The translations under genes were made by a program, and so were the position numbers. From an uncultured Candidatus Peribacteria bacterium (GTDB lineage: Bacteria > Patescibacteriota > Gracilibacteria > CAIRYL01): a DNA stretch of 64,000 nt. Below the pieces are notes generated by a model. The model saw only the letters and a program-made list of their open reading frames with translations. It was not told where the DNA came from and did no database searches. The number at the start of each line of letters is the position of its first letter. Within the stretch, counting starts at the first letter, position 1. Location of the stretch: NCBI GenBank assembly GCA_964509985.1, contig CAZDZQ010000010.1, positions 6,187 through 70,186 of the forward strand, in the 5' to 3' direction. Of this stretch, positions 22,823-51,806 are shown in pieces.

Positions 22823-22976
22823 ATAAATAATTATAAATAGTTAATTTTTTTAACAAATTATACACTAATTTTTTATATACATACAGTTCAAATTCAATAT
22901 ATTATGTGTATTAAATTATGTTTTTTAGTATAATATTATGATATGTTTTTAAAATATAAAAAATTAGAGAAAAAAT

Positions 22977-34700: not shown

Positions 34701-37700
34701 CATAGTTCTCTTGGTGCAGGAAGTCGAGTTTTTGAAATTGATTCTCAGTATGTTGATGATTTATATGCAGAAGTTGGAGGAAGTGGAGATGGAACTATGA
34801 CAATAGGAGCATATAGTCTTGGAAATATTGATACCAGTATTCCATCATCTCAAAATACAAGAATTAATTCAGAAAATTATTTTGGGCGTTGGTTAAATAG
34901 GCAAATTGAAGAAATCACATCTATGTTTACAGTTCCTACTCTTACTATTTTGTATCCTGATATTTCTAATACTTTTTTTGGTGAAAATAATACTTCAATT
35001 ACTGCAGGTATGATACAAGAAGATGATTACAAAGATGCATCTAATGCTTTTTCAAATGATACATCAAACATTACATTTGAAAATCAATGGAATAATCAAG
35101 AAGACAAAGAAAAAAAACAAGATGAAGATAGAAGTGAAGGGGTTTTAGACTCTTCAGAGTCAGGTATAAATTCTGTATATGACTATATAACTCCGCAGGG
35201 TAAAAATAAAGAAGCGGTAAAATATTCAGCCAAATCTATAGATGATTTTTACAGAATCTTGGAAAGTGTTCCTATTATAAATATTAGAAGAGAGTCTATT
35301 GTTATTAAATATCCATCTCTTTCTCGAAAAGAATTATTAACAAAAATTCATGATTTAGATGTTTTTATAGAGGCTGCAAAAGAAGAACTTAATACATTTG
35401 AAGATTTAGTAGTGAATTGGCCTGCAGATAGAAAAGCAGAGCATCAACAAATTGTGAGAAAATGTAAAAGATTTATAAAAGATTTAGTTAAATTATTAGA
35501 TGCTTTAAATTTTTATAAAGACGAAGCAGGTGATTTAATTGCAGATTTTGATTCACAAATGAGTCGATATATTTATTCAATAGTTTGTTATTTAAATGCT
35601 ATTACAGATTTAACAGGTGGATGGTTAATGAAAAATAAAATTCGTTATGAAAAATGGTTAGAGTTTTATGACACTATTATAGAGTTAATGAAAATGTATA
35701 AAAAAATTCCAGAGATTTTAAATGGATATCAGGCTTCTTGTGAGCAATGTAGAGCAACAAATGCAGATTCTAGTGATAATATGGTGGGGTCGATTGGAAG
35801 TTTCTTTCCAGAACCTCCTATTATTCGATTTCCTCGTCTCCCTGATCTAGTATTAGATGTATCTCAAATTAATGCTGGAATTACAGTTTCGATTCCAGAA
35901 ATTACATTCAAAGCAGTTCCTTTAAAAATTCCTAATTTACCGAAGGTATTGTTACCAAATGTTCCAATTTTAGCTGTAAATTTAAAATTTCCAAAAGTTC
36001 CAAATTTACCAATTTTTGAATTACCAGTACTTCCAGAATTTCCAGATTTGAATATTCCCGTGTTACCAAATATTCCACCGCCACCAAAACTTCCAGATAT
36101 TCCATCAGAGCTTATGGATGTAATGGAGGTTATTGAAAAAGCATTATATTTATATTGTATTATTGTGAGACAGGGGATTTTCTTTCATGATGAAGATACT
36201 GCAATGTCTGTTGTAGAAACGCTTACAAATAGAAAAATAAATCCATTAAGTATGGACTTTATATCAAAAGATTTTCCAGATATAGTATTGCCGAGTATTT
36301 CTGAAATTGAAATTATAGCAGAGGTAAATTTGGAAAAAGATTTAGGTGCTATTTCAGATAAAGTTCAAGATTTTGCAGATGGTATAAATGATGCCACAAC
36401 AAACATGGTAAAAGACGCAAATCGTAATTTAAGTGATAATTATGATAAATATGGTGATCCTATAGATTTATCAGATAATAAATATGTGAAAAAAGTAGAG
36501 AGAGAGGTGGAAAATTTGCAAGAAAATATTAATAAAGAAATAGATGATAAATATAATAAAAATGTTGATAATTTAAATGATGATGTAAATGAAGGAATGA
36601 ATAATATTAATAAACATATTGAAAATCAGGAAAATAGAAATCAAGAAAATGTAAACACCGAAATAGATAGAGTAATAGATAAGGTAAAAAAAGATTTATC
36701 TTTTGAAAATTTAAATAATTCTGAAAAATTATTTAAAAAAATAATTGCAAAAGACATGCAAAACATGCAAAAAAATATAAAAAATATAAATAATCCAAAA
36801 AATTATATTTCTGTTTCTCAATTACGAAAAAAAATGGGATTACATAGCATGAAGAACATTGATATTTCTAAAAAAATAACTTCTGTTTCTCCTGTTTTAT
36901 CTAAATATCAAGATATGAATAAAGCTTTAATATCTATTCAAAAATATTATGAAAAACAAGAAACATTTTTAGCAGAAAAAAATATTCATTTTTTAGATAT
37001 GGTTGCTCAAAATATTTCAGATTTCCCAAAATCTAAAGTATATGCATGCGAAGGTGAAAATTGTTCAGATAACCAAATATCACCAATATCAGAAGAAGAT
37101 AAAAGAAATCCTACAAAAAATAATTCTCCACAAAAACAACCAGATGAAGGAATTTTTATTCAGTCAGAAACTGGAGCGGTTACAAAACTGACAGAGTATA
37201 CTGATGAAGTCACTCAAATTCATACATTTTTTAAGAATGATATGGATGGAGATGGATTGGAAGATATCGTTTATGCAACTTCAAATGAGATTTTTATTAA
37301 ATATGCAAATAATTTTAATAAAAATTATAGATTAAAATACTTAAAACAAGGTGTTTATGTTCCTGAAAATGGGGATCCAACATCTGTAGAAATTTTAAAT
37401 TTTGAAGAAATTTTACCAGAATTTTTATCTCCTAAAAATTTGGAAGTGTTTGGAGATGGAAAAAAACTTTCAGTTTCTGTGTTGCCAGAACCAAAAGAAT
37501 TAATTTCTGGAGTGTTGTATACGATTGATGATTCAATAACATTTGAACAAAGAAAAGGTGGGGATGTTCAAAAAATTAGAAAATATATATTTCAACTTAC
37601 AAAAGAAACATTTGATAAAATGTCTCAAAAATATTCTGGAATGATAGAACGAGATGTAGAATGGGAAAAAGAAGTTGGAGAAAATTTTATTGAAATCAAT

Positions 37701-40700
37701 AATCAAAAAATATTTTTAGAACCAAATTCTATAGTGCGAATAGATAAGTTTGATTATGGGCAACTTGAAACATTTATTCCAATAAATGATGTAAAATCAT
37801 TAAAAGCACGATGGATAACGAAAGATGGTAAATTAAGTAATTATGCAAATCATGATTTATTATTTAATACTCAAGCAAGCGATACTCATGCTCCGTTATT
37901 ATTAAGTAGAGATATATATGAAGAAAAATTAATGTATAAAAAAAATACAGTTTCATTAACTGGAGTGTTTGATTTAGAAAATGGAGATTCATCTGTATCT
38001 TGGGATACTGATAATGATGGGATTTATGAAACAACAGGGGATAGTTTTACTACAAAAATTCATGAAGAATTGTTTGAAAAAGAAAATGTTCCATTTAAAG
38101 TTACAGATACGCTTGGAAATGAAGCTATGGGAACTGCATATATAACATTTATATCTCCATATGTTAAAGTTGATAGTGCAACAGAAAATACTGTAAAAGG
38201 TCATGTAGAGCCTCGATATGCAAATGTTCCAGTTGTTTTATTAAGAGAACGATTTGGTGTTTTGAAAAAAATTAGAGATGTTGTAAAAACTAATGCTTTA
38301 GGAGAATATATTTTTGAACATTTAGATAATTCTGCTACGAATTTAGCAATTTTAAAAGATGAATCAGGAATAATTATTGGGGAAGTTGGCAAAGATGGAC
38401 AGCTTCATTCCTTGGAAAATGCACAAAATTATGAAATTAAATTATTGGAAGGAGATAAATATTTGCCACTACGGCAGGTTCTGGTTAATTCTGTAACGGG
38501 AAAGGTTGTTGCTACTCTTGTGTTAAAATCTAATAGTGAATATAGTGTAAAACTTTTACAAAATTTACAAAGTTTTACAGATGAAGTAGATAATAATAAT
38601 AATAAAAATAATATTTCAGAGTATAATAATTCTGTATTTATTACAGATAATAATGAAACTGATGATTTTGTATTTGGACAAATGCCACTGGATGCATCTG
38701 ATAATGCAGGTGGAGGTGTGATATTTTCAAAAATTGAAAATAAGCCAATGGTTATGGTATATCCAGATGGAAATATTAGATTTTTTCCAGAGTATAAAGA
38801 TAATTTATCTGTACGACAAAAAAATATTATTTATACAAATTCTGATGATGAGGAAATAACAAAAATTGTTGTTGAAATTTTAAATTCTGAATCAAAAATA
38901 TTTGAAGTTTTATTAGATATTCAAAAAACAAAAGTAAATATAGATTTTGATACGGTTGCAAGTGCGTCTGTGTTGGATTATGAAAATAATAATAAGCAAA
39001 ATGCAGAAAAATATAGTTTTATAAATATTCATAATTTTACAGCATCTGTAGATAATCTGATTCCAAATTCAAAAAATACATCATCAGAATTATTCAAAAA
39101 ATTTCCTTTTACGGATTTATCAGAGCAAAAAAATAAAAATATTTATAATGCTGTTAAAAATTTGTATGAAAAAAATATGATATCAGGATATGAAAATAAT
39201 AAATTTAAGCCAAATCAAAAAATAACAAGGGCTGAATTTGTTCATGAAGCTCTTGCTGTTACAAAATGTTTAGATTGTATAAATCCTTCAGATTTTGAAA
39301 AAAATAAATATTATAAGCCTTTTTCTTTTTCAGATATAGTTCCTCAATCGTGGTATGATTTTTGTATTTCAAAGGCAAAAGAAATTTCTATGATTAAAGG
39401 ATATAAAAATGGAGAATTTAGACCGAATCAAAATATTACTCGTGCAGAATCAGTCGCTATATTGTTACGGCAAGCTGATATTCCTTTAGAACAAACATTA
39501 AATACGGCAATTGCAAAAACAGAAAGTATTGGAGATTTGGATCCGTCTCAATGGTTTTATAAAGAAATGATAACCGGAATAAATTTAGGTTTGATAGATC
39601 CTGTTTTAGGATTTTCATTTCCAAATAAACAAATTACACGAGGAGAATTTGCGATTATGTCAGATAAAATATTTGTGTTGAGGGATTGTAGAGATGTTGA
39701 TAGTGATAATGATGGAATATTTGATTATTTAGAAGAGTATTATGGATCAAATGCTTTTGATAAAAACAGTATTCCTGAAAATATAGAAACATTAAAAAAT
39801 CCAAGAGATGAATTATTATCTCCTATTCCAGAAAATCAAAATAATCAAATTATTGATGATTTAACAGATAAAGAAAATAGTAATAATTTTGATAAAAATA
39901 TAGAGAATATAGATTCTGATGCTGATGGTATTCCAGATTATAAAGATATAGATTTTTCAGAATTTAAAGAAGATATAAATAATAATAATATTTCAGATAG
40001 ATTTGAAGAAGTACTGGGCTATGGAACTTTAGATATAAACAATAATGGTATTTTAGATTACTATGATTATTCACTTGTAAATCAATTGGATACTAATACT
40101 AATTTAAGTTTAACAGATAAGACTAGTACTAATTTGAGTTTAACAGATAAGACTAAGACTAATCTAAGTTTAACAGATAAGACTAGTACTAATTTAAGTT
40201 TAACAGATAAGACTAGTACTCGTGCTATTTTAGATTATTATGATTTAGTTTTAAATTTTTTAAATAATAAAAATAATAAAAATAATAATTTCACTTTATC
40301 TTTAACCGATAAAAATAATAACAATATTATTGATCAGCGTGAAGATTTGTATAATAAAGAAACTAGTAAAGATAGTGATAGTAAAGATAGTAAAAATAGA
40401 GATGATAGAGATAATAATAAAGAAATTTATCCAAATATAGATAAGATACCTCATTCTTTTCCAGAAGTTTTAACTGATTTATGTCCACTAGTTCCAGAGG
40501 ATTATGATAGAATAGACGATGCAGATGGATGTCCAGAATTGGAAAAAGCAGAAGATGTATTTGAAATGGATATTTCTACGTTATTTGTAAACAATACAGA
40601 CGAATGTAGTTTTGTAGATTATGCTGATGAGTTTAGAAATGGGGATATGATAAAAACTGTAATTTTATCACCAAATGAAAAATATTTATATAAAGAGAGC

Positions 40701-40736
40701 GATACAATAAAAATTTCAAAATCTATTGAGTATTAA
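25764..40736 (+). CDS. 4990-aa giant mosaic cell-surface protein
   Basis: Single uninterrupted ORF of 14,973 nt with an N-terminal hydrophobic anchor (~25860-25917). FG-GAP/VCBS-like motifs are FDFDGDGKVDIAE, DLNKDGFSDIIGI and NDMDGDGLEDIVYA. Asp-rich Ca-binding-like motifs are DDDGDGVPNQWDEDLD, DSDNDGIFDY and DSDADGIPDYKD. A PKD-like segment reads SWDTDNDG...FKVTDTLGNE. There are also a Pro-periodic spacer, three SLH motifs and tandem repeats. Confidence 0.85.
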   Translation: MFFLKIFSNFFQFIFQQLKVVWFFMFHFFRFKPLVSSVIIIALILPILLPWQNIMVSSQYIESEHSLITIFVDKNLYDNVELNKKITRYAQDVQYSYSDTKVSIIPVNKEKTSEEIYRILEKYYFEGQKIEDNIFFLTGIIIIGDVILPDLKSEAGNMPSIFPYTDFEKPVFIWDTEDKKWIENPKVNTPSAEIWHGIIPGTKSQLFKFFDKNHVMHEKLYSGSEEFNDVIRDEILYWDSTTEKTGMQKMNLQQYEKAMDLMGYRKEFKYYTNFLKFLYSDFLNEKDFEDDIPETVKSLYPDNRDIFLEKIDDVKEKISGDTLNNIPDRNVKVSIEKLLPTYAEVVKSYETDSQEFIKNTGRWDNKSADTVPEMISVMDEYVGNEIKKINDTFKNVSINNVKQLDGEKEIIVKEKINHWTSEKPVKYCEEERTHPRYNYINGYLAEPTPAPIVNGERYYDLDNPPQMIEDTKDCTLYRGEKGSHELYGNKDFYTWLDQKKGKIPDSTDESYIYLPDSLPNVSSKLVEYNKLDSIEWLEKERGDADEKVGGCYLGSEENDDICIPMEATIPVLAWDGGVERAPREYFPYGDRTLGKLEEDAEISAISCNRMSFAEERYGVVGSDNLGNPIFGCVPYYGVHKAYNTKTISSYTLHDDASLNDEKSLNEVVGRLKSKAMGVNKNSFQTVLNGRYDGIQESVDQYFPDFFRLQYKKMIHSAVLTQYELSRIAFWNSLQLLGGGAIYNRTSQLKNSMGMMVQVPVIKAQRLVMFDEKTNTSKTSESFIMPDNLNKRPLDYELPAYETMLQVLVDPEICFDEDKFRVKILKPKITAYAEDYFKMHYDLPGGVRNLLAQHISGLNYAKTWEYEVAMDLIATVVYSRGYNSCAILDEGPIMRDIHSFEYKKKTNPSDYFLKDLLTEQNVEVDPDFNKYRYLAFHNVGSTWQWEPLVKGIFKKKYSPEELDELQSVISSEFSEEVSEQLRKKLSELFDTTLAESEVIKISDIFPEDIIEERDSDANRDGLGESLKNIINKIIKEIEGEVLQKIIFDIIEESGNVILPEFSKELQEQLQERLIEELELAFNENFIERVSALIPYQIIDDIHGVDVHGNKITEQNVLDDASILAYKKLIKLETKVLNDNHYTLNNMLMNEFSDYGRLIVNDLLNGDEGDSEGEGDSEEESQALTIAEVFEIINNYEKKKIYNFFNEENKNLFNFEAAEKYKILLMDTVRKNLLNNYVRNISFNSLEDDIYNIIQDITIEVQGKYPSQSIQEMADEIPENLGEMYIETQELLPRLDSKFHTYLRVSGRTFLDGEKSARPNANSQYPAGQEANGVSWFRDDDMKKWSIDLNKGTEDRKRYITSNEYYRKFHRYKKGHPKDEDSDDYVYEVNTVKKFKKNIPDVNTYPEEVFFTDIKNQSKDAYDLKVRQQDLVFHWQNMTAQEKHEKIQQILLSKNQKLVQPLQEKNEYLSTGESKPYAYAHWRIEGDSEPAWLAENDQTSLLLGLPTSDYGSGAFSNFEKNPEKMQAIDKNGEEQDEECGDMEGVPLEDWLDAIDCWMEKMGKLDELETTSACNLSLEEFKALQSDEKDTKNAVEKIEFTPTIEPFFAKGESKILLSFKTKEDKLAFGHDIRFTVTLENAKMRDVINDVDLEKEGTQLINRTGEEWIEIIPDDNVENVKITVKIDDENLEKSENIIGNKEFEVLPQNLDVFYIEEIQNTEVLGVKGYEFKITSPVDFIHFDEEIVLSISPEKEGILGTNTVELNTSFKVGVRTDESVILTASLRGSKSVSKILSGVSDISSTVGDIQLPTLPNIIDLHSRIEFDVRYLNELGTILDSEIDGELQLIKIPDEERKKYNVEILDNQKIQIETKGVIGEVTFTLQYKKNGEVLSKEFSVWIGGKHSVEEYEKFNFNALYATIVGLENYGTNLNNHFATKILHSSDNLNVVTTQIIAPKVKKPVARIFNNGTIETYSSGYKANLLNISPLKIGLYDKKEKRYKGKFDFVIEKFEEENLYLQAPVNEEKGIFFEKLSTAKSISAEKKNKNIFVKLDNIDILSINNLGNIEILDNNFRVEIDEKEKVLGISLLIRKNDTSTTYGRITLRGGKLKKSSESIWVKSLKDEDGYEILETDAKLVPLFSTYQTNFSKNIFSSGFKDDEKYVLEYASGLTVGEATQSSADLFLVNLGDPSISIPPPADSTSSDFDRTIGKSVLKEKGGTIQKILPFDFDGDGKVDIAEISSEGFVHILLNTGNANGDMKQWGKAVRIDSDYRSISKLSIKEDAEDVYDDLVYVDRFGKFHHIKNKEGVLSIVDNPEYFPKEILITSEIEDLNKDGFSDIIGITENNEIKIWYGNSNYFISDPVNIDSYGFVIPKAKVLAKSVLINFKNIESISDFVDDIKQISYISKIKSVQNKENKSVEDNLSESRVLKEYEDRAVSEIILGDINSAFSAGVSEKPFVEAQKIRKSLSVTKIMIEDENTNKTVHHTVGKKYITQIEITSKDTKDITFNIADLYGNLMEIDQFSVVCKYKDASTNTCGEEYAGFTFPNISRAVIFENIVLKPNQTVVLSYYSFIKKLPKLGLSLANLNNADDNIIDFIVKNPSDKWAFQYESVGEKLYSKKLPDPQDLNVDLEPSHGIDVSLLSGLLDPVEISDADIDKIINTVEKINTVGNGVNVSMGMQNAMAGAAGIDVLTPKEQLEEYIKSLFPKETDTTTRAVGEIVENFVEDLLDWQKNGKFDDDGNSIEFNVENINTDLQSVMMGARFEAVKSASGIEKAVDNLTNDDDGDGVPNQWDEDLDKAMTELETVLDDSIDFLASCNGGGCLDMPVNFAFLVPGEMNISGMVNQVYTSIAGQIGNVLKDDTVSLAVNGAKQMAMDGVGNFEGDQPFVMTIFNFGSGTFCVLYACFSYYPIVSIPFETGFSNSEFRFYLSPTVTGGLGFVICTGSGNSTSDPGGSCFIQAIEGDLGDVCNDLAAKINNAIHSSLGAGSRVFEIDSQYVDDLYAEVGGSGDGTMTIGAYSLGNIDTSIPSSQNTRINSENYFGRWLNRQIEEITSMFTVPTLTILYPDISNTFFGENNTSITAGMIQEDDYKDASNAFSNDTSNITFENQWNNQEDKEKKQDEDRSEGVLDSSESGINSVYDYITPQGKNKEAVKYSAKSIDDFYRILESVPIINIRRESIVIKYPSLSRKELLTKIHDLDVFIEAAKEELNTFEDLVVNWPADRKAEHQQIVRKCKRFIKDLVKLLDALNFYKDEAGDLIADFDSQMSRYIYSIVCYLNAITDLTGGWLMKNKIRYEKWLEFYDTIIELMKMYKKIPEILNGYQASCEQCRATNADSSDNMVGSIGSFFPEPPIIRFPRLPDLVLDVSQINAGITVSIPEITFKAVPLKIPNLPKVLLPNVPILAVNLKFPKVPNLPIFELPVLPEFPDLNIPVLPNIPPPPKLPDIPSELMDVMEVIEKALYLYCIIVRQGIFFHDEDTAMSVVETLTNRKINPLSMDFISKDFPDIVLPSISEIEIIAEVNLEKDLGAISDKVQDFADGINDATTNMVKDANRNLSDNYDKYGDPIDLSDNKYVKKVEREVENLQENINKEIDDKYNKNVDNLNDDVNEGMNNINKHIENQENRNQENVNTEIDRVIDKVKKDLSFENLNNSEKLFKKIIAKDMQNMQKNIKNINNPKNYISVSQLRKKMGLHSMKNIDISKKITSVSPVLSKYQDMNKALISIQKYYEKQETFLAEKNIHFLDMVAQNISDFPKSKVYACEGENCSDNQISPISEEDKRNPTKNNSPQKQPDEGIFIQSETGAVTKLTEYTDEVTQIHTFFKNDMDGDGLEDIVYATSNEIFIKYANNFNKNYRLKYLKQGVYVPENGDPTSVEILNFEEILPEFLSPKNLEVFGDGKKLSVSVLPEPKELISGVLYTIDDSITFEQRKGGDVQKIRKYIFQLTKETFDKMSQKYSGMIERDVEWEKEVGENFIEINNQKIFLEPNSIVRIDKFDYGQLETFIPINDVKSLKARWITKDGKLSNYANHDLLFNTQASDTHAPLLLSRDIYEEKLMYKKNTVSLTGVFDLENGDSSVSWDTDNDGIYETTGDSFTTKIHEELFEKENVPFKVTDTLGNEAMGTAYITFISPYVKVDSATENTVKGHVEPRYANVPVVLLRERFGVLKKIRDVVKTNALGEYIFEHLDNSATNLAILKDESGIIIGEVGKDGQLHSLENAQNYEIKLLEGDKYLPLRQVLVNSVTGKVVATLVLKSNSEYSVKLLQNLQSFTDEVDNNNNKNNISEYNNSVFITDNNETDDFVFGQMPLDASDNAGGGVIFSKIENKPMVMVYPDGNIRFFPEYKDNLSVRQKNIIYTNSDDEEITKIVVEILNSESKIFEVLLDIQKTKVNIDFDTVASASVLDYENNNKQNAEKYSFINIHNFTASVDNLIPNSKNTSSELFKKFPFTDLSEQKNKNIYNAVKNLYEKNMISGYENNKFKPNQKITRAEFVHEALAVTKCLDCINPSDFEKNKYYKPFSFSDIVPQSWYDFCISKAKEISMIKGYKNGEFRPNQNITRAESVAILLRQADIPLEQTLNTAIAKTESIGDLDPSQWFYKEMITGINLGLIDPVLGFSFPNKQITRGEFAIMSDKIFVLRDCRDVDSDNDGIFDYLEEYYGSNAFDKNSIPENIETLKNPRDELLSPIPENQNNQIIDDLTDKENSNNFDKNIENIDSDADGIPDYKDIDFSEFKEDINNNNISDRFEEVLGYGTLDINNNGILDYYDYSLVNQLDTNTNLSLTDKTSTNLSLTDKTKTNLSLTDKTSTNLSLTDKTSTRAILDYYDLVLNFLNNKNNKNNNFTLSLTDKNNNNIIDQREDLYNKETSKDSDSKDSKNRDDRDNNKEIYPNIDKIPHSFPEVLTDLCPLVPEDYDRIDDADGCPELEKAEDVFEMDISTLFVNNTDECSFVDYADEFRNGDMIKTVILSPNEKYLYKESDTIKISKSIEY
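39104..39680 (+). other. three SLH (S-layer homology) motifs inside the giant protein
   Basis: FTDL...NMISGYENNKFKPNQKITRAEFVHEAL; FSDI...MIKGYKNGEFRPNQNITRAESVAILL; ...FPNKQITRGEFAIMSDK. Confidence 0.7.
40098..40217 (+). repeat. 4 x 30-nt in-frame tandem repeat encoding TNLSLTDKT(S/K)
   Basis: Units at 40098-40127, 40128-40157, 40158-40187 and 40188-40217. Differences are TTA/TTG/CTA (all Leu) and AGT/AAG (Ser/Lys). A degenerate extra copy (FTLSLTDKNNNN) lies near 40283-40315. Confidence 0.9.
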
Positions 40737-42126: not shown

Positions 42127-44307
42127 ATGAATAAATTGAAAAATAAATTAATTACAACAACCCTTATTTCTAGCGTATGTGTATCGGTAACACTTGCAGG
42201 AGGAGCAAATATCTTTGATGATGTTTCTGGAAATCATCAGTATGCTGATGCTATAAATTGGGTATATAATAAAAATATTGCAAAAGGATATGTTGTAAAA
42301 GGATTAAGTGTAAATGACCGAACTCATTACAAACCAGAAAATACAATAACTCGTGCGGAATTTGTAAAAATGTTGTTGGTTTCAAAATATGCACGATGGG
42401 CTATTGATGCAAATGGAAATACAGATTTTTCTGATGTGTATGGAAATGAATGGTTCGCAGAGCTTGTAGATTTTGCAACAGAAAAAGGTGTTATTAAAGG
42501 ATATAATGATGGAACATTTCGTCCAAATGATAAAATTAATTTTGCAGAAGCTAGTAAAATTATTGCATTGTTGCATTTGTCAAAAGATGTAAATTCTCAA
42601 ACACAAGGCGAGTGGTGGGAAAAATATAAAGATGCATTTGAAAAAAATAATGTTTCTGTTTATTCACCAGAGCATTTAATTACTCGTGGAGAAATGGCAG
42701 ATTTTTTGTTTGATATTTATGGTGAATCGAGTTTGAATTTTTGGGATATACCTAAAAATTTTACAAATCTAGAAAAAGAGCTTTTGTCTATTTTAATAAA
42801 ACTAGATCATACATATGAAGATTCTGAAAAAGAAGTAAATTTTATAAAAAAAATAAACACTATTAATGGTAAGGATTTATATATAGTAGCATTGCAACAT
42901 GAACTTGCAGGTTATGAATTTGCATATTTTTATCATTCAGAAGGTGGAAAAATAGAAATTGTTGGGTCTGAAAATGGAACATCAAATATTCACACGGAGG
43001 GCTATGGTGATTTCGATTCTAAAAGCTATATTTCAAAAAATAATATAACTTTTGGTGAAACACTTCCTGCTCAATATAAAGTTTCAGAAAATTTAGAAAT
43101 ATCAGGATTGAAAATAGATAAAGAAACATATATACCATTTCAAAATAATGATAAATTTGAAATTAATCCATATTTGTTAAAAACAGATATATTTACAAAT
43201 GATGGAAAAGAAATTTTTACAGATACTTCGAACGCGTTAATTATTAGGACAGATGATTTAGTTTCTCATAAATATTCATTGAAAGTTCCATTTTTAGAGG
43301 ATAATCAAATTGCAGATATTTCTTGGTCAAATAATGTGAATTCTGGAAAATATGACGAAGACTACAGAAAAGGATATACATATCAAGACCAAGGAGGATG
43401 TGGAAGAAAAAATTATGCAAGTGTTGTGTATGAAGATGTAAAAGTTGGTGTATATATTAAAGATATACAAAATGGAGGGTATAAAATTCAAGAAAATTAT
43501 TTTGATATTTATATTAAAAATTCAGATTTAAAAGAATCTGGGATTGGAAAAAATGGAGAGATTATTTTAGAATTTAAAGATAAAAATCATGTTTTTTTGA
43601 AAGATTTATATGAAAATAAATATTTTGATTATGATGATAGAATTTCATATGAAGAATTTTTAGCAGTTCATCCTGTATTTTTCTGGAGAGATAATTTAGG
43701 TAGATTGATAAAATTTGAAGGAAATAAATTTATTCCTCAAGCAGAGTGTGGAAAACCAGTTGTTTATTTATATCCAGAACAAGAAACGCAGGTTCATGTT
43801 TCAGTTGCTCCAGAGGGTGGATTTTCTGTAACTATTCCAGAACATGGAAAAAATGGTTGGGATGTAATAGCACAACCAAATGGAGATTTAACAGAAATTA
43901 AAACAGGGGATTCGTACCCATATTTATTTTGGGAAGGGCAAGGAGATATTTATGAAAGTCCAAAAAAAGGATGGGTAATTCCAAAATCTCAAGCAGATAT
44001 TTTTGTTGCAGGAAAGCTTACTCAATTTGGATTTAATACTCAAGAAATAACAGATTTTCTTGAATTTTGGTCACCTCGAATGCAAGCGGAAACACAGGAT
44101 TATTTATTTGTATCATTTTGGGGAACTCAATATATGAATAAAATAGCTCCAATTTCAATTTCACCACAACCAGATTCTATTTTACGAGTTTTGATGGATT
44201 ATAAAGCAGTGCCAGAGTTTTATGAAACAACAGCACCAAGAATTAGAAAATTTAAGAGAACAGGTTTTGTTGTTACAGAATGGGGAGGAACGCTAGAAAG
44301 AAAATAA
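42127..44307 (+). CDS. secreted SLH-domain protein with a large uncharacterised C-terminal domain
   Basis: Signal peptide (LITTTLISSVCVSVTLAGG). SLH motifs are FDDVSGNHQYADAINWVYNKNIAKGY...ITRAEFVKMLL, FSDV...GVIKGYNDGTFRPNDKINFAEASKIIAL and ...ITRGEMADFLF. Confidence 0.65.
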   Translation: MNKLKNKLITTTLISSVCVSVTLAGGANIFDDVSGNHQYADAINWVYNKNIAKGYVVKGLSVNDRTHYKPENTITRAEFVKMLLVSKYARWAIDANGNTDFSDVYGNEWFAELVDFATEKGVIKGYNDGTFRPNDKINFAEASKIIALLHLSKDVNSQTQGEWWEKYKDAFEKNNVSVYSPEHLITRGEMADFLFDIYGESSLNFWDIPKNFTNLEKELLSILIKLDHTYEDSEKEVNFIKKINTINGKDLYIVALQHELAGYEFAYFYHSEGGKIEIVGSENGTSNIHTEGYGDFDSKSYISKNNITFGETLPAQYKVSENLEISGLKIDKETYIPFQNNDKFEINPYLLKTDIFTNDGKEIFTDTSNALIIRTDDLVSHKYSLKVPFLEDNQIADISWSNNVNSGKYDEDYRKGYTYQDQGGCGRKNYASVVYEDVKVGVYIKDIQNGGYKIQENYFDIYIKNSDLKESGIGKNGEIILEFKDKNHVFLKDLYENKYFDYDDRISYEEFLAVHPVFFWRDNLGRLIKFEGNKFIPQAECGKPVVYLYPEQETQVHVSVAPEGGFSVTIPEHGKNGWDVIAQPNGDLTEIKTGDSYPYLFWEGQGDIYESPKKGWVIPKSQADIFVAGKLTQFGFNTQEITDFLEFWSPRMQAETQDYLFVSFWGTQYMNKIAPISISPQPDSILRVLMDYKAVPEFYETTAPRIRKFKRTGFVVTEWGGTLERK

Positions 44308-45373: not shown

Positions 45374-46798
45374 TTAATAATTGTCTGACAAATCATTTTG
45401 AAACAAAATAGTATCACCTTTTTTCAAAACATTTATAAGGTCTGCGTGTGCTTGGTCTACTGTATCATATTCTATAATTTTAATATTGTTTTTAATATTC
45501 AAATTTAAATTAATATTATTTTTGATAATTTTAGTATTTTGATTTTTAATCAATAATAAAACATCTACATAACTTGGATATATTGAGGCTAAGTTTTCAT
45601 GAATTTTTTTTGTATCTTTTCCAAGTTCTACAATTCCAGGAGTTAAAACTATTTTTCTACCAGATGCTCTATCTAGTGTTTTTAAAGCGGATATAAATCC
45701 ATCAAAATTTCCATTATAGCTATCGTCAATAACAGTTACTCCTGTTTGTTTATTTTTTAAAATTTCTAGTCTATGTGGAACATGATTCAAATTTTTAATA
45801 CCTTTTTGTATATTTTCTGCTGATAAATTTAAAATTTCTGTAAGTTTTAAGCAAAAATAAATTGATGAAATTATGTGGTTTGCAATCAGTTTTGTTTCGC
45901 ATTTTATATATTTATTCTTATATTTATATTCAAAGCTGATACCAGAAAATTCTGGTAAATAATTTATATTTTTTATATTTTCAGAGTTTTCATAATTATT
46001 TATATCCATACTTATTATTTCTTGTTTATTTTTCTGTTTATTAAAAATATCTAAATAATTTGTAATATTTTTATCTGAAATGTTTACAAATGCTTTTTGT
46101 GTAGTAGCTGTTACAATTTCAAATTTTGCTTTTTTTATATTTCCATGGCTTCCAAATCGTTCTAAATGCTGGTTTCCAATTGCTGTTAAAAATGAATAAT
46201 TTGGTTGGATAAAATTGCAAATGCTTTCAATTTCGCCAATATGAAAAGCACCCATTTCCAAAAGCAAAATATCAGATTTTTCAAGATCTTTTTTATTTTT
46301 TAGTAAATAATTTGCAATTCCTAAATCTGTATTAATGTTTCCAGGCACAAGAAATATATTATATTTTTCTTGTAAAAGTGAATATAAAACTGTTTTTATT
46401 GTTGTTTTTCCGTATGAACCTGTGATTCCTATTTTTAAAAATTCAGAATTTTTATTATTAATTTTATTTATTAAATTTTTTGCTTGTTTTAAAATATTAT
46501 TTTTTTTATATAAAACCAATGGAGATATTAATATATCTGCAATTAATATATAAAAAGGAATGAGAACAAATTCTGCAAAGCAATAAATTATTTTTTCAGC
46601 ATAATTAAAAGTAAAATAAATACTAAAAATAAAAAGTAATAATGCAAATGTCATTATTATTTTAGCCCGTAATGTCCAATCAATTTTTCCTCTTTTTGAC
46701 AAACTAAACCAATTTAAGTGAGAGTATACAAATTGTATAAATCTTAGTTTGTCATAATGTTCAGATTGATAGATGTATAAAAGCTGTGAAAAAATCAT
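45374..46798 (-). CDS. Mur ligase family protein (MurF-like) with a hydrophobic N-terminal extension
   Basis: GITGSYGKTTIKT P-loop, plus LLLEMGAFHIGEI, DDSYNGN and LVLTPGIVELG-type blocks. The first ~100 aa contain 2-3 hydrophobic helices. The start codon overlaps the fbp stop by 1 nt (TAATG). Confidence 0.6.
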   Translation of the reverse strand: MIFSQLLYIYQSEHYDKLRFIQFVYSHLNWFSLSKRGKIDWTLRAKIIMTFALLLFIFSIYFTFNYAEKIIYCFAEFVLIPFYILIADILISPLVLYKKNNILKQAKNLINKINNKNSEFLKIGITGSYGKTTIKTVLYSLLQEKYNIFLVPGNINTDLGIANYLLKNKKDLEKSDILLLEMGAFHIGEIESICNFIQPNYSFLTAIGNQHLERFGSHGNIKKAKFEIVTATTQKAFVNISDKNITNYLDIFNKQKNKQEIISMDINNYENSENIKNINYLPEFSGISFEYKYKNKYIKCETKLIANHIISSIYFCLKLTEILNLSAENIQKGIKNLNHVPHRLEILKNKQTGVTVIDDSYNGNFDGFISALKTLDRASGRKIVLTPGIVELGKDTKKIHENLASIYPSYVDVLLLIKNQNTKIIKNNINLNLNIKNNIKIIEYDTVDQAHADLINVLKKGDTILFQNDLSDNY

Positions 46799-47730
46799 TA
46801 TTTTTTATTTAAAATTTCTACAACTTTTGCCACACTTTTAGAACTTCCCAATAATATTGATGTTCTTTGGTGTAATTCTTCAATTTTAATATCAGAAATA
46901 TTCTTGCCAAATTCGTCTACGGCTGCAGCATTTGCATTATTCATTATGTATGCCATGGGTGCACATTCATATAATAGTCGCAATTTTCCTTTTGGATATG
47001 CAGAATGACTTGGGTATGTAAAAATCCCAGATTCTTTGCATAAAATTGAATTGATGTCTGGAACCATACCTCCTGCATATCGTAAAGTTTTTTTCTTTTC
47101 TAAAAAATAGTCTAAGACTTCTTTGTATTCTGGTCGCTCTGTAGATGCTCGTAAATTTCCCATTGCAAATATTTTGGCATTGTCGTTTACCGCAATATTT
47201 TCTTTTGAAAGATGATATTCTCCAATTTCAGAAAGAGTAAATTCATGAGTTTTTCCTGCAAAAGAAAGCATTGCAGTGGTTCGAGGTCCATATTGAATAT
47301 ATCCTGCAGCAACTAAATCATTTCCAGATTTGCCTAAAAATCCATTTCCTTCCCAAATTCCAAAAATTGTTCCAACACATCCATTTGTGTCTAATAAAGA
47401 AGAACCGTCTAAAGGGTCAAATGCGACAGAATAAAATCCCTTATCACCATTTATGCTTACTTCATTTTCTTGTTCTTCTGAAGCAAAAGACGCAACTAAT
47501 TCTGATTCTGATAAAATTTTACAAAATATTTGATCACATTTTATATCTAATGCCAGTTGTTCTTCTCCTTGTATATTTACCTCTCCGCTTTTTCCAGTTT
47601 CTTCTGTTCTGATAGCATGTTCTGCGTATTTACTCGCTCGCATAATTTCTACAATTACTCGTTGTAAATTTGATGGGATATTATTGTTATTTTTATTGCT
47701 TTCAAATAAAAAATTGTGAAGAGATTGCAT
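46798..47730 (-). CDS. fbp: fructose-1,6-bisphosphatase, class 1
   Basis: ASEEQE, AFDPLDGSS, YGPRT, LRYAGGMVPDINSIL and LRLLYECAPMAYI are class I FBPase motifs. Confidence 0.85.
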   Translation of the reverse strand: MQSLHNFLFESNKNNNNIPSNLQRVIVEIMRASKYAEHAIRTEETGKSGEVNIQGEEQLALDIKCDQIFCKILSESELVASFASEEQENEVSINGDKGFYSVAFDPLDGSSLLDTNGCVGTIFGIWEGNGFLGKSGNDLVAAGYIQYGPRTTAMLSFAGKTHEFTLSEIGEYHLSKENIAVNDNAKIFAMGNLRASTERPEYKEVLDYFLEKKKTLRYAGGMVPDINSILCKESGIFTYPSHSAYPKGKLRLLYECAPMAYIMNNANAAAVDEFGKNISDIKIEELHQRTSILLGSSKSVAKVVEILNKK

Positions 47731-47795: not shown

Positions 47796-50700
47796 CTAGT
47801 TTTCTAAAACGCTAATTTTTTCTTTTATTTCTTCATATTGTGCTTTTGTTTGTGCCACTAAATGATCTGGTGCGTTATCCATATATTTTTTATTTGCTAT
47901 TCTTTTTTCTAAATTTTGTAGCATTTTATACGCTGATTCTAATTCTTTTTCTTTTCGTTCTTTTTCTTTTTCCATGTCTAACATTCCAGCTAAAGGAAGA
48001 AAAATTTCTGTTCCGTCAATAATATCACTAACACATTCTTCGCTTGGTTTTTCGTCTTCTGATGTAATGAATGTAAGAGTCTCAAGTCTGGCAAGAGAAG
48101 AAATTGTATTTGCTGTATTTTGTAATTCTTGTAAAATTTCAGAATTTTTTACAAATAATACTGCTTTTATTTTTTTTACAGGATCCACTTTTGATGCAGA
48201 ACGCAATGATCTAATTTTTGCTGTTACATTTTTAAATATTTCAAATTTTTCTTCTGCAGATATATCAATTTTTTCTGTATTGATTTCTGGAAAATCTTCA
48301 AGTGCAAGCAATGTTGTATTTCCAAATTCTGACCAAATTTGTTCTGTTACAAATGGAATATATGGGTGTAAAAGTTTTAAAAGTGTTGTTAAAACTTCTT
48401 GAAGAGTTCTTCCAATCGTTTTACTTTCTGTAGATTTTGCTGATTCAATTGCCCAGTCTGCAAGTTCGTTCCATGTAAAATCATAAAGTTTTTGTCCTAC
48501 TTCTCCATATTTATGATTTTCTATTCCTGTTCGCACTTCTTCTATTAGTTTTTGAGTTTTAGATAAAATCCATTTTTCTGGCAGAGAAATATTTTCTGTT
48601 TTATTATTATTTTCGTTATTTTCTAAGCTTTTAATATATCGAGAAACATTCCATAATTTATTTGCAAAATTTCTAAATCCTTCAATTTTTTTCTCTCCTA
48701 AATTTACCTGATTCCCCGGTGTTGTCCCTATAATTAAAGACATTCTTACTGCATCTGTTCCAAATTTTTCAATCATATCTAATGGATCAATTCCATTTCC
48801 TTTAGATTTACTCATTTTTTTTCCGTGTTCGTCACACACCAATCCGTGTAAATATACATCTGAAAAAGGATTTTTCCCTGTTGTAAATTTAGAAAACATA
48901 ATCATTCTTGCTACCCAGAAAAATAAAATATCATGTCCTGTTTCTAGAACTGAGGTTGGGAAAAATTTTTCAAAATCTGGAGTTTTATCAGGCCAACCAA
49001 GGGTTGAAAATGGCCATAATGCAGAAGAAAACCAAGTATCTAAAGTGTCTTCATCTTGACGCAGTTTTATTTTCCGATTTGTTTTTTCTTGAATATTTTC
49101 AAAGAATTTGTTAAAATCCTTATAGAGAGGAGTTTGACGACTGGGAAATCCCACCACCAGCCTCTTCGCATCTTTTCGAAGTTGCGAGGTAATGCACGAA
49201 GGAGCAGTGGGTCCTTCTAAACTCCTTTTTTTATGATATCTTTGTTTTGAAACAAGAGATTCTAAATACCGTTCGCTGTTTGTCAAAAAGAAATACGAAA
49301 CTATTTCATTTTGTTCTTTTTTTGAATCCAAAACAATTACTACAGATTGCTCATCATGAGGTGCATGAGCGATTAGATATCTTTCATTTTTTTCTGAATT
49401 TTCATAAATTTCTGTTGCATGTTCCAAAAAGTATGGAAGTAAATAAAAATCAGAATTTTCTATTTCATTGTGTCCTAAAAATTTAGGAATCCATCCTTTC
49501 ATTTTTGCATAAATAAATTCAGAAATTTGTACAGTTGGTGTAGAAATTTCTAGAGCTTCTTGCATTTCTGGAGAAAGTTTTCCTACTTCAAAAAATTTAT
49601 TTTTATCATATAATTTTTCTTGTTTTTCTAAATTTAATAAATTTTCTATATTTTTAAAATATTCAGAATAATCTGTTTTTTCAGAATTTTTTTCATATAC
49701 AACAGGTTTCACCATTAATAACGATTCTTTTATTTCACAATTATCCATTTTCCATCGCTTCCAATGTTCAACAATTGTTTCTTTTGTTGCTCCATTTTTT
49801 ACAGCAAAAATAAAGCTGGTAAGTGCAGCATGTCCTACTATTAAAATTTCACCACCTGTTTCAACTTCTGCAATTTTTTCCCAGAATTTTTTTGCAATAA
49901 TTACATATTTTTCTATAGCTTCAAGCCCTTCTTCTGCTTGAATTGTTTCAAGTGCTGTTTTCGTTTTTAAAATAGATTTTGGTTGTCCTTCATATTTTCC
50001 AGCATGAAATTCTTTTAAAATATCCCACACTTCAATATTTTCAGAATTATAACCAAATTCTTCACATGCTATTTTTGCTGTTTGAAAAGCTCTATCAAAA
50101 GAAGAAGAAATTACTTTTGTAATATTAATTTCATTATTTTCTGTTTGTTTTTTCAGTTTTAACCCAAGTTCTTTTGCTTGTTGTTTTCCTTTTTCGGTTA
50201 AAGGCGAGTCTCCACAAATAATTTGATTTACATTATTTTCACTTTCTCCGTGTCGAGTAAATAATAATTTTTGTTCTTTAGCAACATGTTGATTGTTGTC
50301 TTTGTCATACCAAATTGGAATTTGATGCCCCCACCAAATTTGTCGAGAAATACACCAATCTTGTAAATTATCTATCCATTGATCATAAATTTTATTAAAT
50401 CGGTTTGGAACTAAATTTACTAAATCTGAATTTTTATCATAGTCTCCTCTGTTTATTGCTTGAGAAGTTAGTTCTTTTAAAGTAGTTTTTATAGATTTTG
50501 TTGTTGCATTTTTTACAGCTCCAACTCCATCTATCCAATCAAATTTTTTATTTACATCAATAAACCATTGAGGTGAAATCATTGGCTCAATAACGCAACC
50601 AGTTCTATAACATAGTGGCACATTATGTACGTAATCTTTTTCTAGTCCTACAATTAAATTTTTTGCAAGCATAAGTTTTACGGCTCGTTTTCGTGCAATT

Positions 50701-51806
50701 TTCACTTCAACGCCTTCTAATTCTCCTGCAATTTTTGTCATTTTACCTTCAAAATCAATTTTTTCTGTGTAATAATTTTTTAATTTTTCAGGATATTTTT
50801 TTGCCAGTAAATAATCATCTGCAGAATGACACACTGAAATTGTCATAGCTCCAGTTCCTTTATTTATATCAATTACTTCGTCGTCGCATAATACAAAGAA
50901 ATCTCTTTTTCCAGAATATGTTTCATCTGAAAATTTTTCACCTTCAAATTCTTGACCTTGATGAACAGAAATTTTTTCCCATGTTCCTTCTCCTAATTCA
51001 TTAAAGATTTTTGTTCGTCTTTCAATATCATCAAATAATACTTCTGAAAATATAAATTCTTCAGAAATATTTTCTGAATTTGTAAATTTAGCTTTTACAT
51101 AATTTTCTGTAGGATGCAAAACAAGAGGGGAGTTCGCACATTTTGTTTCGGCACGTACAGTACCCATTACAAATTTTCCACATTTTATATAACAAAATGT
51201 ATCTGTTTGGTCTTCATATTCTAACTCATCGTCTGATAAAACAGATTGAGCACCAGTAGACCAGTTAATCATTCGGTATCCTCTTACAATTAAATTGTGT
51301 GAATATAAATCTGAAAAGATTTTTTGAACAGCATTACTCATTCCTAAATCCATGGTAAATCGTTCTCGAGAAAAATCGCAAGTTGCTCCCATTTTAGATA
51401 CTTGTCCAGTGATAGTGGCATGTGTTTTTTCTGTATGTTCAAAACATTTTTCTAAAAATTCTGGACGTGTAAATTCTTCACGAGACGAAACTCCTAAATT
51501 TTTTAAAACTACAGTTTCTGTTGCAATTGCTGCATGATCAGTTCCAGGTGTCCACAATGAAGGAGTTCCATTCATTCGGTTATATCTGGTCATGATATCT
51601 TGAATTACCAGCATCATGGCATGTCCCAAATGAAGTTGTCCTGTTACATTTGGCGGTGGAATTGGCACACAAAAAGTTTTATCCGAAGTTTTCTTTTCAG
51701 ATTTTTTTACTAAATTTTCTTTTGTTTCTGGCTGAGAAATATTTGCAGTATCCCATGCTTTTAAAATATTGGATTCATATTTTTTTGGTTCGTATGCTGT
51801 ATTCAT
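47796..51806 (-). CDS. valS: valine--tRNA ligase with a ~400-aa internal insertion containing a histidine-phosphatase (PGAM-like) domain
   Basis: HIGH region PPPNVTGQLHLGHAM. WCISRQIWWGHQIPIWY. DEDTLDTWFSSALWPFSTLGWP. KMSKS. C-terminal coiled coil. The insert between the WWGH and DTWFSS blocks begins LLFTRHGESENN. Confidence 0.9.
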   Translation of the reverse strand: MNTAYEPKKYESNILKAWDTANISQPETKENLVKKSEKKTSDKTFCVPIPPPNVTGQLHLGHAMMLVIQDIMTRYNRMNGTPSLWTPGTDHAAIATETVVLKNLGVSSREEFTRPEFLEKCFEHTEKTHATITGQVSKMGATCDFSRERFTMDLGMSNAVQKIFSDLYSHNLIVRGYRMINWSTGAQSVLSDDELEYEDQTDTFCYIKCGKFVMGTVRAETKCANSPLVLHPTENYVKAKFTNSENISEEFIFSEVLFDDIERRTKIFNELGEGTWEKISVHQGQEFEGEKFSDETYSGKRDFFVLCDDEVIDINKGTGAMTISVCHSADDYLLAKKYPEKLKNYYTEKIDFEGKMTKIAGELEGVEVKIARKRAVKLMLAKNLIVGLEKDYVHNVPLCYRTGCVIEPMISPQWFIDVNKKFDWIDGVGAVKNATTKSIKTTLKELTSQAINRGDYDKNSDLVNLVPNRFNKIYDQWIDNLQDWCISRQIWWGHQIPIWYDKDNNQHVAKEQKLLFTRHGESENNVNQIICGDSPLTEKGKQQAKELGLKLKKQTENNEINITKVISSSFDRAFQTAKIACEEFGYNSENIEVWDILKEFHAGKYEGQPKSILKTKTALETIQAEEGLEAIEKYVIIAKKFWEKIAEVETGGEILIVGHAALTSFIFAVKNGATKETIVEHWKRWKMDNCEIKESLLMVKPVVYEKNSEKTDYSEYFKNIENLLNLEKQEKLYDKNKFFEVGKLSPEMQEALEISTPTVQISEFIYAKMKGWIPKFLGHNEIENSDFYLLPYFLEHATEIYENSEKNERYLIAHAPHDEQSVVIVLDSKKEQNEIVSYFFLTNSERYLESLVSKQRYHKKRSLEGPTAPSCITSQLRKDAKRLVVGFPSRQTPLYKDFNKFFENIQEKTNRKIKLRQDEDTLDTWFSSALWPFSTLGWPDKTPDFEKFFPTSVLETGHDILFFWVARMIMFSKFTTGKNPFSDVYLHGLVCDEHGKKMSKSKGNGIDPLDMIEKFGTDAVRMSLIIGTTPGNQVNLGEKKIEGFRNFANKLWNVSRYIKSLENNENNNKTENISLPEKWILSKTQKLIEEVRTGIENHKYGEVGQKLYDFTWNELADWAIESAKSTESKTIGRTLQEVLTTLLKLLHPYIPFVTEQIWSEFGNTTLLALEDFPEINTEKIDISAEEKFEIFKNVTAKIRSLRSASKVDPVKKIKAVLFVKNSEILQELQNTANTISSLARLETLTFITSEDEKPSEECVSDIIDGTEIFLPLAGMLDMEKEKERKEKELESAYKMLQNLEKRIANKKYMDNAPDHLVAQTKAQYEEIKEKISVLEN

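Follow-up and report, generated by a model that had tools for sequence, protein, structure and literature searches.

A valyl-tRNA synthetase of a Gracilibacteria-type bacterium with a histidine-phosphatase domain and a PBECR-like module in frame within its catalytic core

The cores of aminoacyl-tRNA synthetases are among the most conserved of protein architectures. There is a curated precedent, family NF040702 (ileS_w_GNAT), for a class Ia synthetase with an entire enzyme domain inside it, and an SR1 isoleucyl-tRNA synthetase (IleRS) has been described, in one sentence, as split by phosphoglycerate-mutase domains, together with Nudix (Kantor et al., 2013, mBio, PMC3812714). Here we describe the valyl-tRNA synthetase (ValRS) encoded by valS in a 64,000-nucleotide stretch of contig CAZDZQ010000010.1 from an uncultured Candidatus Peribacteria bacterium (the whole stretch is called the window). 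Two foreign domains, a histidine phosphatase (Module 1) and a PBECR/MuF-C-like module (Module 2, or MODX), occupy the Rossmann-fold hairpin loop of this enzyme between WCISRQ and DTWF, in place of the zinc knuckle of the Thermus thermophilus enzyme.

The SR1 IleRS resembles the window ValRS in being a class Ia synthetase, here from a related lineage of the candidate phyla radiation (CPR), that contains histidine-phosphatase domains of phosphoglycerate-mutase type in frame. It differs in host enzyme, in insertion sites (IleRS sites B, C and D, as against ValRS sites A and B, all defined below), in the presence of Nudix and in the absence of a PBECR-like module, and the report gave no analysis of catalytic residues, distribution or function. 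The GNAT of NF040702 is another fold in another host enzyme, and the window ValRS has no GNAT. One IleRS carries the automatic JGI annotation ‘isoleucyl-tRNA synthetase/phosphohistidine phosphatase SixA’. In the full-text literature we found no paper on the ValRS case, the hot spots, their active-site conservation, a PBECR-like cassette or a function for any of these. An earlier sequence-only reading of the window had called the arrangement undescribed; for ValRS in the literature this stands, but it is too strong as a general statement, because synthetases bearing the Pfam domain PF00300 are public (dozens of ValRS and ~100 IleRS), one is auto-annotated and the SR1 remark of 2013 is in print. 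The architecture is a widespread, essentially unstudied trait of CPR class Ia synthetases, first glimpsed in 2013, to which the window adds the PBECR-like cassette.

Comparison with better-known proteins defines what is unusual here. The T. thermophilus ValRS (1GAX/1IVS) shares with the window enzyme the HIGH and KMSKS motifs, the CP1 editing domain, the anticodon-binding domain and the C-terminal coiled-coil arm, and its catalytic-core segment scores 228 bits by sequence against it. Between WY and LKRDED it has a ~29-residue CxxC...CxxC zinc knuckle, whereas the corresponding loop of the window ValRS lacks cysteines and holds ~400 extra residues in two folded domains. Module 1 is like the broad-specificity histidine phosphatases of branch 1 (PhoE 1EBB/1H2E, PFKFB2 5HTK, TIGAR 3E9C and the short archaeal-type dPGM family NF038349) in its RHG...R...E...H signature and its length of ~180 amino acids (aa), with matches at E = 4e-07 to 5e-16, but unlike them it is inserted in a hairpin of another enzyme, being neither free-standing nor a terminal fusion. 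The RNase H/acid phosphatase proteins of Rv2228c type (NF005567, E = 2.6e-10) also join a histidine phosphatase to a nucleic-acid enzyme, but they do so by terminal fusion and with another partner, and the window domain reaches 40 bits against a cut-off of 326. Module 2 shares a helix, four strands and a conserved strand-4 Ser/Thr with the PBECR/MuF-C domains that occur in polyvalent proteins of phages and plasmids (Iyer et al., 2017, PMC5512222); it differs in having a helix Lys for the usual His, in its extra conserved N- and C-terminal helices, and in being hosted by cellular tRNA enzymes and not by virion proteins.

The gene is a single open reading frame (ORF) of 1336 codons with zero internal stops in the ORF list, and its landmarks are as follows.

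47796–51806, minus strand: valS, a complete class Ia valine–tRNA ligase of 1336 aa plus stop, with two inserted modules
51621–51632, minus strand: HIGH motif (HLGH, aa 59–62), with H59, G61 and H62 invariant in a 48-sequence alignment
50307–50357, minus strand: WCISRQIWWGHQIPIWY block (aa 484–500, containing WCISRQ), the upstream anchor of hot spot B
48990–49061, minus strand: DTWF block (aa 916–939), the downstream anchor of hot spot B
48804–48818, minus strand: KMSKS motif (aa 997–1001), with K997, S999 and K1000 invariant in the 48-sequence alignment

In the same alignment, no variation is seen at the editing-region residues T216, R218, E220 and T221. Against the NCBIfam valine–tRNA ligase equivalog NF004349 the protein scores 842.7 bits (cut-off 704), and against TIGR00422 737.7 bits (cut-off 612.1); Pfam finds tRNA-synt_1 in two stretches, Anticodon_1 at aa 1077–1215 and Val_tRNA-synt_C at aa 1277–1334. 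An AlphaFold2 (AF2) model of aa 1–1196 has a predicted local distance difference test score (pLDDT) of 83, and its core superposes on 1GAX with a template-modelling score of 0.74. Among the window and its two closest relatives in GTDB, which come from metagenome-assembled genomes labelled ‘uncultured Candidatus Gracilibacteria’ (L001 and L002, 81–82% identity), the ratio of non-synonymous to synonymous substitution rates (dN/dS) is 0.15 for the core; other named relatives belong to Candidatus Peregrinibacteria or Gracilibacteria. The surroundings are housekeeping genes (fmt, mur ligase, fbp, nusA, RNase J and L1), an identical protein with the same neighbours (peptidase U32, fructose-1,6-bisphosphatase (FBPase), Mur ligase and fmt) lies on a Logan contig of run SRR8542060, and a 61%-identical protein from other sources (P0006) has the same architecture. 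By all appearances, the gene is a working, intact valS of a code-11, Gracilibacteria/Peregrinibacteria-type CPR bacterium. UGA is read as Gly in BD1-5 and SR1; such a code was rejected for the window, where ORFs are long and dense under code 11.

An intein was likewise rejected: no Hint or intein family appeared in the Pfam scan, and relatives lack conserved nucleophiles at the boundaries. The junctions of the insert (...EQK/LLFTRHG and ...NRKIK/LRQDED) have no splice-junction residues. Since intein features are missing, the enzyme is probably translated as one 1336-aa polypeptide.

The window ValRS has ~414 aa where its relatives have 38–52; measured from WCISRQ to DTWFS, its spacing is 436 aa, as against 38–52 aa in ~45 canonical relatives and ~49 aa in 1GAX, on which the insertion point maps to residues ~417–445, the CxxC...CxxC zinc knuckle. 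The sequence-only reading was right about the uninterrupted 1336-aa frame, the intact HIGH and KMSKS motifs and the oversized loop. It had also recognized both anchor blocks, although it placed them slightly off (50309–50338 and 49021–49064). Its proposal of a single ~400-aa insertion does not hold: the insert is made up of two modules independent of each other, namely a phosphatase domain that would be old and a module of ~212 aa that is lineage-specific. Three relatives with ValRS 81–82% identical to that of the window (L001, L002 and P0003) have the phosphatase domain and lack the second module: MIPPQGHQNMRQDED stands in them at the place of MVKP, ~212 aa and LRQDED in the window, so that ...ESL(V/L)MIPP(Q/A)GH(Q/E)... 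in these proteins corresponds to ...ESLLMVKP followed by the module in ours. Because it is absent there, Module 2 would be a separate, more recent acquisition, or else has been lost in those three. A 25-nt imperfect direct repeat (76% identical; 49077–49101 and 49671–49695) lies near both ends of Module 2, where a target duplication would sit, and its copies encode ..EKNSEKTD.. and ..ENIQEKTN..; it is probably a chance occurrence in AT-rich DNA, and the search for repeats around Module 2 otherwise gave only short AT-rich matches.

Module 1 carries the complete catalytic set of the histidine-phosphatase superfamily.

49731–50267, minus strand: Module 1, a His_Phos_1 (PF00300) domain of branch 1, aa 514–692, at the site of the 1GAX zinc knuckle
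50247–50255, minus strand: RHG motif (R518, nucleophile H519, G520), codons CGA CAC GGA
50091–50093, minus strand: second catalytic Arg, R572, in SSSFDRAFQTA, kept in 83 of 87 ValRS copies
50010–50012, minus strand: putative proton-donor Glu, E599, in LKEFHAGKYEG, kept in 61 of 87 ValRS copies
49830–49832, minus strand: distal catalytic His, H659, in LIVGHAAL, kept in 74 of 87 ValRS copies

The scan with the PF00300 hidden Markov model, suggested in the sequence-only reading as a check, matched aa 514–692 at E = 1.2e-25 (90.7 bits, cut-off 21.7; profile positions 1–176 of 194), and in the AF2 model pLDDT is above 90 throughout the domain. The domain is thus the histidine phosphatase that had been proposed, with the RHG codons exactly where they had been placed and the second Arg, the acidic residue and the distal His all present, but it extends over ~180 aa and not ~155. 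It appears to belong to none of the histidine-phosphatase subfamilies, the best models falling far under their cut-offs: 59.1 bits against 225 for dPGM_arch (NF038349, E = 5e-16), 48.1 against 162.9 for ribazole_cobC, 33.7 against 81.7 for pgm_1 (TIGR01258), 30.7 against 74.5 for sixA (E = 2.4e-7) and 27.6 against 350 for PspA. By sequence, the solved structures that come nearest to it are those of the PFKFB2 bisphosphatase domain, PhoE and TIGAR (E ~1e-6). The phosphatase domain shares 70% identity with the nearest relatives, and the core 83–89%; for the former, a dN/dS of 0.12–0.35 (window, L001 and L002; 0.26–0.35 for the window against L001 and L002) indicates purifying selection. Elsewhere in the window, an enolase is encoded at 13599–14885 (minus strand) and a class-1 FBPase at 46798–47730 (minus strand), immediately downstream of valS. 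The valS domain is the sole histidine-phosphatase or phosphoglycerate-mutase-like sequence in the 64 kb, and for this reason a metabolic role for it is formally open.

The same insertion recurs in independent assemblies, as a survey of related ValRS proposed in the sequence-only reading showed. Seventy of the 120 best ValRS matches carry PF00300, in one to three copies each and 87 domains in total, and so do ~108 of the 120 best IleRS matches of a search started from IleRS P0122, with up to three per protein; among the hits surveyed, all named carriers are CPR bacteria of Gracilibacteria/Peregrinibacteria type. In ValRS the domain occupies two hot spots, A between SPQWF and WCISRQ (canonical spacing 56 aa) and B, the site used in the window. 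Most carriers have one copy at hot spot B (spacing 213–242 aa), some have two in tandem (for example P0013, P0016, P0024, P0039 and P0068) and P0015 has three, while copies at hot spot A are found in P0002, P0038, P0083 and P0112, among others. The insertion sites of IleRS are B, C (just after D.WF.SG) and D (~76 aa past KMSKS). Several large contigs (for example those of 962,416, 768,182 and 743,733 bp) appear to bear the domain in both ValRS and IleRS, the pairing of the two resting on equal size in bp only. The label ‘class I tRNA ligase family protein’ that many of these proteins have at NCBI is a consequence of their inserted-domain architecture.

Conservation of the active site was assessed across the 87 ValRS copies. 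The Arg, His and Gly of RHG are kept in 84, 85 and 83 of them, respectively; where the Glu is missing, its position holds G, A or S, and the distal His is replaced by Asn in 10 copies. Of 56 single site-B copies, 41 have RHG-R-E-H complete, and each host/site group (ValRS A and B; IleRS B, C and D) retains the superfamily signature at the level of at least 80%. In an all-against-all comparison of 215 phosphatase copies, the nearest neighbour lay at the same site of the same enzyme for 69 of 74 ValRS-B, 61 of 62 IleRS-D, 46 of 48 IleRS-B and 17 of 20 IleRS-C copies, so that each insertion site behaves as an orthologous group. In none of the 215 cases was the nearest neighbour within the same protein, and recent tandem duplication was rejected as the origin of the multi-copy proteins on this ground. 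Because the copies group by site, the phosphatase domain is best seen as an old insertion that has been inherited mostly vertically.

Module 2, which the sequence-only reading had left as ~240 aa with no recognizable motif, is best described as a PBECR/MuF-C-like domain, on the basis of sub-threshold Pfam matches of its family members and of Foldseek.

49065–49706, minus strand: Module 2 (MODX), aa ~701–914, which immediately follows the phosphatase domain and is divergent, of PBECR/MuF-C-like (BECR-fold) type
49470–49505, minus strand: most conserved MODX positions in alignment A2, A767 and K768 (core helix YAKMKGW) and G778 and H779 (GHNEI)

In alignment A2, which holds 29 sequences, A767 and K768 are invariant and G778 and H779 are at least 90% conserved. 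Pfam finds MuF_C in seven of the 29 members (best E = 6.8e-5), PBECR2 in five and PBECR3 in three (best E = 8e-6), all under gathering scores; the window copy itself has no Pfam match at E ≤ 0.05 and no PBECR or MuF_C match at E ≤ 0.1. An AF2 model built from the family alignment (pLDDT 84.5, predicted template-modelling score 0.82) has a helix at MODX residues 69–76 and strands at 105–109, 115–120, 127–135 and 138–147, with flanking helices at both termini. In Foldseek against BFVD it matches MuF-C-domain and polyvalent proteins at E = 8e-6 to 6e-4; against the PDB nothing was found at E ≤ 0.001, and weak RelE/BrnT-like toxins stood far down the list. A PDB sequence-profile search with the MODX alignment gave a chance match only (E = 0.84), PHROGs gave no match for any of the 29 members, and tblastn of MODX gave none in 50,697 phage genomes. 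The BECR/PBECR fold is defined by a helix at the N-terminus and, after it, four or five strands, with a His (or Arg) in the helix and a Ser/Thr on strand 4 (Iyer et al., 2017, PMC5512222). The MODX model has the helix and the ensuing strands, and the strand-4 residue is found in NEIV(T/S)xF (S837 in the window, Thr in most members). In the helix, the place of His or Arg is taken by the invariant Ala-Lys of YAKxxGW, and the conserved His of the GH motif lies ~8 residues past the helix. Averaged over its members, the family has a basic charge (+3.2 per 100 aa), which the window copy does not share.

The distribution of MODX is sparse: an exhaustive search of 1.84 billion representatives returned only 24 relatives. 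Within other ValRS it occurs at site A or B, alone, before or after the phosphatase domain, and the IleRS P0122 carries GNAT, MODX and phosphatase domains together. Beyond these two enzymes it is found in or after the N-terminal domain of arginyl-tRNA synthetase (ArgRS; P0123–P0126 and P0131, with two copies in P0123), after a short TGT-like N-terminal fragment (P0129), inside a type IIG restriction-modification enzyme (P0132) and in a glycosyltransferase, and some relatives are small standalone proteins. Its boundaries are conserved across hosts, with a start at (F/Y)L(E/K/Q)NIE and an end at ...(E)SQE, as are the core motifs YAK(I)RGW, GH.E, LP and NEIV(T/S).F. MODX is a divergent, sporadic PBECR/MuF-C-like module that appears to move in frame between surface loops of tRNA-handling enzymes, and its spread across ArgRS, a TGT-like fragment and a restriction-modification enzyme suggests an in-frame mobile domain.

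The loops that receive these two modules also receive others. Among IleRS, site C of P0197 holds two HAD stretches and that of P0211 a serine hydrolase (alpha/beta hydrolase), P-loop kinases (AAA_33/AAA_18, zeta type) lie at site C or D in P0175, P0230 and P0232, and GNAT occupies site C in P0122 and others, where it shares loops with the phosphatase and MODX inserts. Domains of mobile elements are found in frame in the CP1 editing region, namely an IS200-like Y1 transposase in IleRS P0230 and a DUF559 endonuclease in IleRS P0232; in ValRS, DUF559 lies in the editing-domain region of P0098 and at hot spot A of P0023. Since multiple enzyme domains occupy the same loops, it is evidently a few loops of this clade's class Ia synthetases that take up entire domains. 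Of the inserted domains, the histidine phosphatase is much the commonest and, given its site-specific groups, probably the oldest. Hot spot A, which in relatives holds a phosphatase domain, MODX or DUF559, is slightly expanded in the window.

50490–50540, minus strand: hot spot A of valS (aa ~423–439), a small expansion, with 73 aa from SPQWF to WCISRQ where the canonical spacing is 56

The window sequence at this place, DWIDGVGAV, resembles the N-terminal flank of site-A inserts in relatives (DWQEGVGAV in P0002). The expansion could be a linker or the scar of a lost insert.

As the best explanation overall we propose an active phosphomonoesterase that is tethered to the synthetase and acts on ribose ends, to which we assign a probability of about 0.4. 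The phosphatase domain is probably catalytically active. It would serve an accessory function outside aminoacylation chemistry, because its presence is patchy and it has been lost repeatedly. The substrate may be a phosphorylated ribose end, bearing a 2'/3'-phosphate or a pyrophosphate, either on the acceptor end of tRNA or on nucleotides released or bound at the enzyme; taken on its own, this assignment to ribose ends of tRNA or nucleotides is weak, and we hold it to be somewhat unlikely. The phosphatase could then work as a built-in end-healing or anti-toxin activity that keeps tRNA chargeable, with MODX, which is related to predicted RNase domains by its MuF_C/PBECR and Foldseek matches, possibly contributing RNA binding or cleavage. 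The repertoire of HAD, Nudix, P-loop kinase, GNAT and hydrolase domains is reminiscent of toolkits for RNA-end healing and nucleotide detoxification. In favour of ribose ends would be the company of HAD, Nudix, P-loop kinase and BECR-like RNase domains, together with the hosts of MODX, which are mostly tRNA enzymes (ValRS, IleRS, ArgRS and the TGT-like fragment), and the patchy, conflict-like pattern of gain and loss.

A number of observations weigh against this proposal. Across groups, the compact phosphatase domains have a mildly acidic net charge (−1.7 per 100 aa) that gives no hint of an RNA-binding surface, and they are inserted at scattered places, A and B in ValRS and B, C and D in IleRS, that show no evident shared geometry relative to the tRNA 3' end. 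Between 20 and 30% of the copies lack the Glu, the distal His or both. Among the proteins examined, phosphatase inserts are confined to ValRS and IleRS, which general tRNA repair does not explain, and the 64-kb window encodes enolase and FBPase but, besides the valS domain, no phosphoglycerate mutase. Mapped on a rough ValRS-core tree made by neighbour joining, presence of the domain at site B requires ~16 changes over 91 leaves, and decayed remnants exist, such as P0007, which lacks the RHG half; patchy presence and remnants together imply that the domain is dispensable and has been lost many times.

Some of these observations would suit a metabolic enzyme that, within a streamlined genome, has settled in a permissive loop of a gene both essential and constitutively expressed and is uncoupled from aminoacylation, for example a short archaeal-type dPGM, or a phosphoserine or sugar-phosphate phosphatase. 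The best subfamily matches are indeed small-molecule enzymes (dPGM_arch, CobC, PhoE, the PFKFB2 bisphosphatase and TIGAR), and the gene content of the 64 kb, the lack of shared geometry and the absence of basic character in the phosphatase domains point the same way. We nonetheless consider this unlikely, since the subfamily scores are all far under cut-off (59 against 225 bits even for dPGM_arch) and a single metabolic step needs neither up to 3–4 copies per protein, nor copies in ValRS and IleRS of apparently the same genomes, nor a conserved group of its own at each site; moreover, non-homologous phosphatases, kinases and transferases fill the same loops in sister proteins, and among the proteins examined the inserts were limited to ValRS and IleRS. 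Alternatively, the phosphatase, with the GNAT, hydrolase and kinase of sister proteins, might shield the synthetase itself, either by reversing inhibitory phosphorylation of the KMSKS region by HipA/HipT-like kinase toxins or by destroying phosphate-containing mimics of the aminoacyl-adenylate. MccE/RimL-type GNATs detoxify processed microcin C, and the histidine-phosphatase superfamily includes the protein phosphatases SixA, PGAM5 and Sts-1. Hot spots B and C lie 20–80 residues upstream of KMSKS and site D ~76 downstream, the co-occurring GNAT, alpha/beta hydrolase, kinase and HAD domains are classic resistance-enzyme families, patchy gain and loss fits a conflict-driven trait, and there is a SixA match, albeit a weak one that lies well under its cut-off. 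Yet neither for ValRS nor for CPR bacteria is a kinase toxin or inhibitor of this type known, and the whole insert gives no match to any PADLOC defence model, so that self-protection seems to us distinctly improbable.

The inserts might also be neutral passengers or structural spacers, tolerated in surface loops of CPR proteins, in frame, and kept only since clean deletion is rare, with catalysis irrelevant. In many lineages the domain is gone or survives as decayed fragments (for example in P0007 and P0081), DUF559 and IS200-like Y1 transposase domains also sit in frame in these synthetases, and the phosphatase evolves faster than the core (70% against 83–89% identity). Set against this are the Arg-His-Gly and second Arg kept in 95–98% of ValRS copies while cores are only 42–60% identical, a dN/dS of 0.12–0.35, and the independent retention of the whole family signature by each site group; we regard a passenger as very unlikely. 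An assembly chimera, or a decaying second copy of valS, is effectively refuted. A second valS could lie outside the 64 kb in view, and an extra, fragmented valS has been reported in an SR1 genome (Kantor et al., 2013, PMC3812714), but the identical ORF with its neighbours on the Logan contig and the same architecture in many independent assemblies argue otherwise, as do the lack of stops, the intact ValRS motifs and invariant residues, the equivalog score over its cut-off, the core dN/dS of 0.15 and the housekeeping surroundings. Decay of the valS copy, for which the sequence-only reading had advised looking, is nowhere seen in the gene.

The phosphomonoesterase that we favour can be set in a broader frame, which is speculative and which we rate as unlikely. 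In the Gracilibacteria/Peregrinibacteria/SR1 branch, CPR class Ia synthetases (ValRS and IleRS, with ArgRS for MODX) might carry a varying complement of catalytic ‘guard’ domains, among them histidine phosphatase, HAD, Nudix, P-loop kinase, GNAT, hydrolase and PBECR-like RNase. By mending or shielding tRNA acceptor ends, or the synthetase itself, in the face of toxins of phages or competitors, these domains would make up a defence or repair system housed in the translation machinery. MODX might then be a new kind of in-frame mobile cassette, bounded by fixed helices, that spreads between genes of tRNA-binding enzymes without protein splicing. What is found across the clade is catalytic domains within the Rossmann fold of ValRS and IleRS, in up to 3–4 copies per protein, at a few reused loops and with active sites kept. 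Should the phosphatase act on tRNA ends, nucleotides or the synthetase, it would be a new synthetase accessory function alongside editing, and it would bear on how genome-reduced episymbiotic bacteria deal with toxins or with damage to RNA. The hot spots are of use even should the domains prove to be metabolic passengers: they show which loops of class Ia enzymes tolerate insertions of 200–600 aa, an aid to protein engineering. The PBECR-like cassette, whose boundaries are fixed, is likewise a candidate for an in-frame mobile domain.

Elsewhere in the window are several further genes of note. A 4990-aa ORF at 25764–40736 (plus strand), whose only Pfam match is one SLH domain near the C-terminus, probably encodes a giant surface protein, and a second SLH protein is encoded at 42127–44307. 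The stretch 17822–25604 encodes a 1666-aa minus-strand ORF without a Pfam match and, adjoining it, an 875-aa protein with a VirD4/TrwB-like type IV secretion coupling ATPase domain, directly upstream of the 4990-aa ORF. A Fic/DOC-family protein and an AAA_14/DUF4143 ATPase, families that are often tied to toxin or defence functions, are encoded at 16415–17470 (minus strand) and 9707–10891 (plus strand), respectively.

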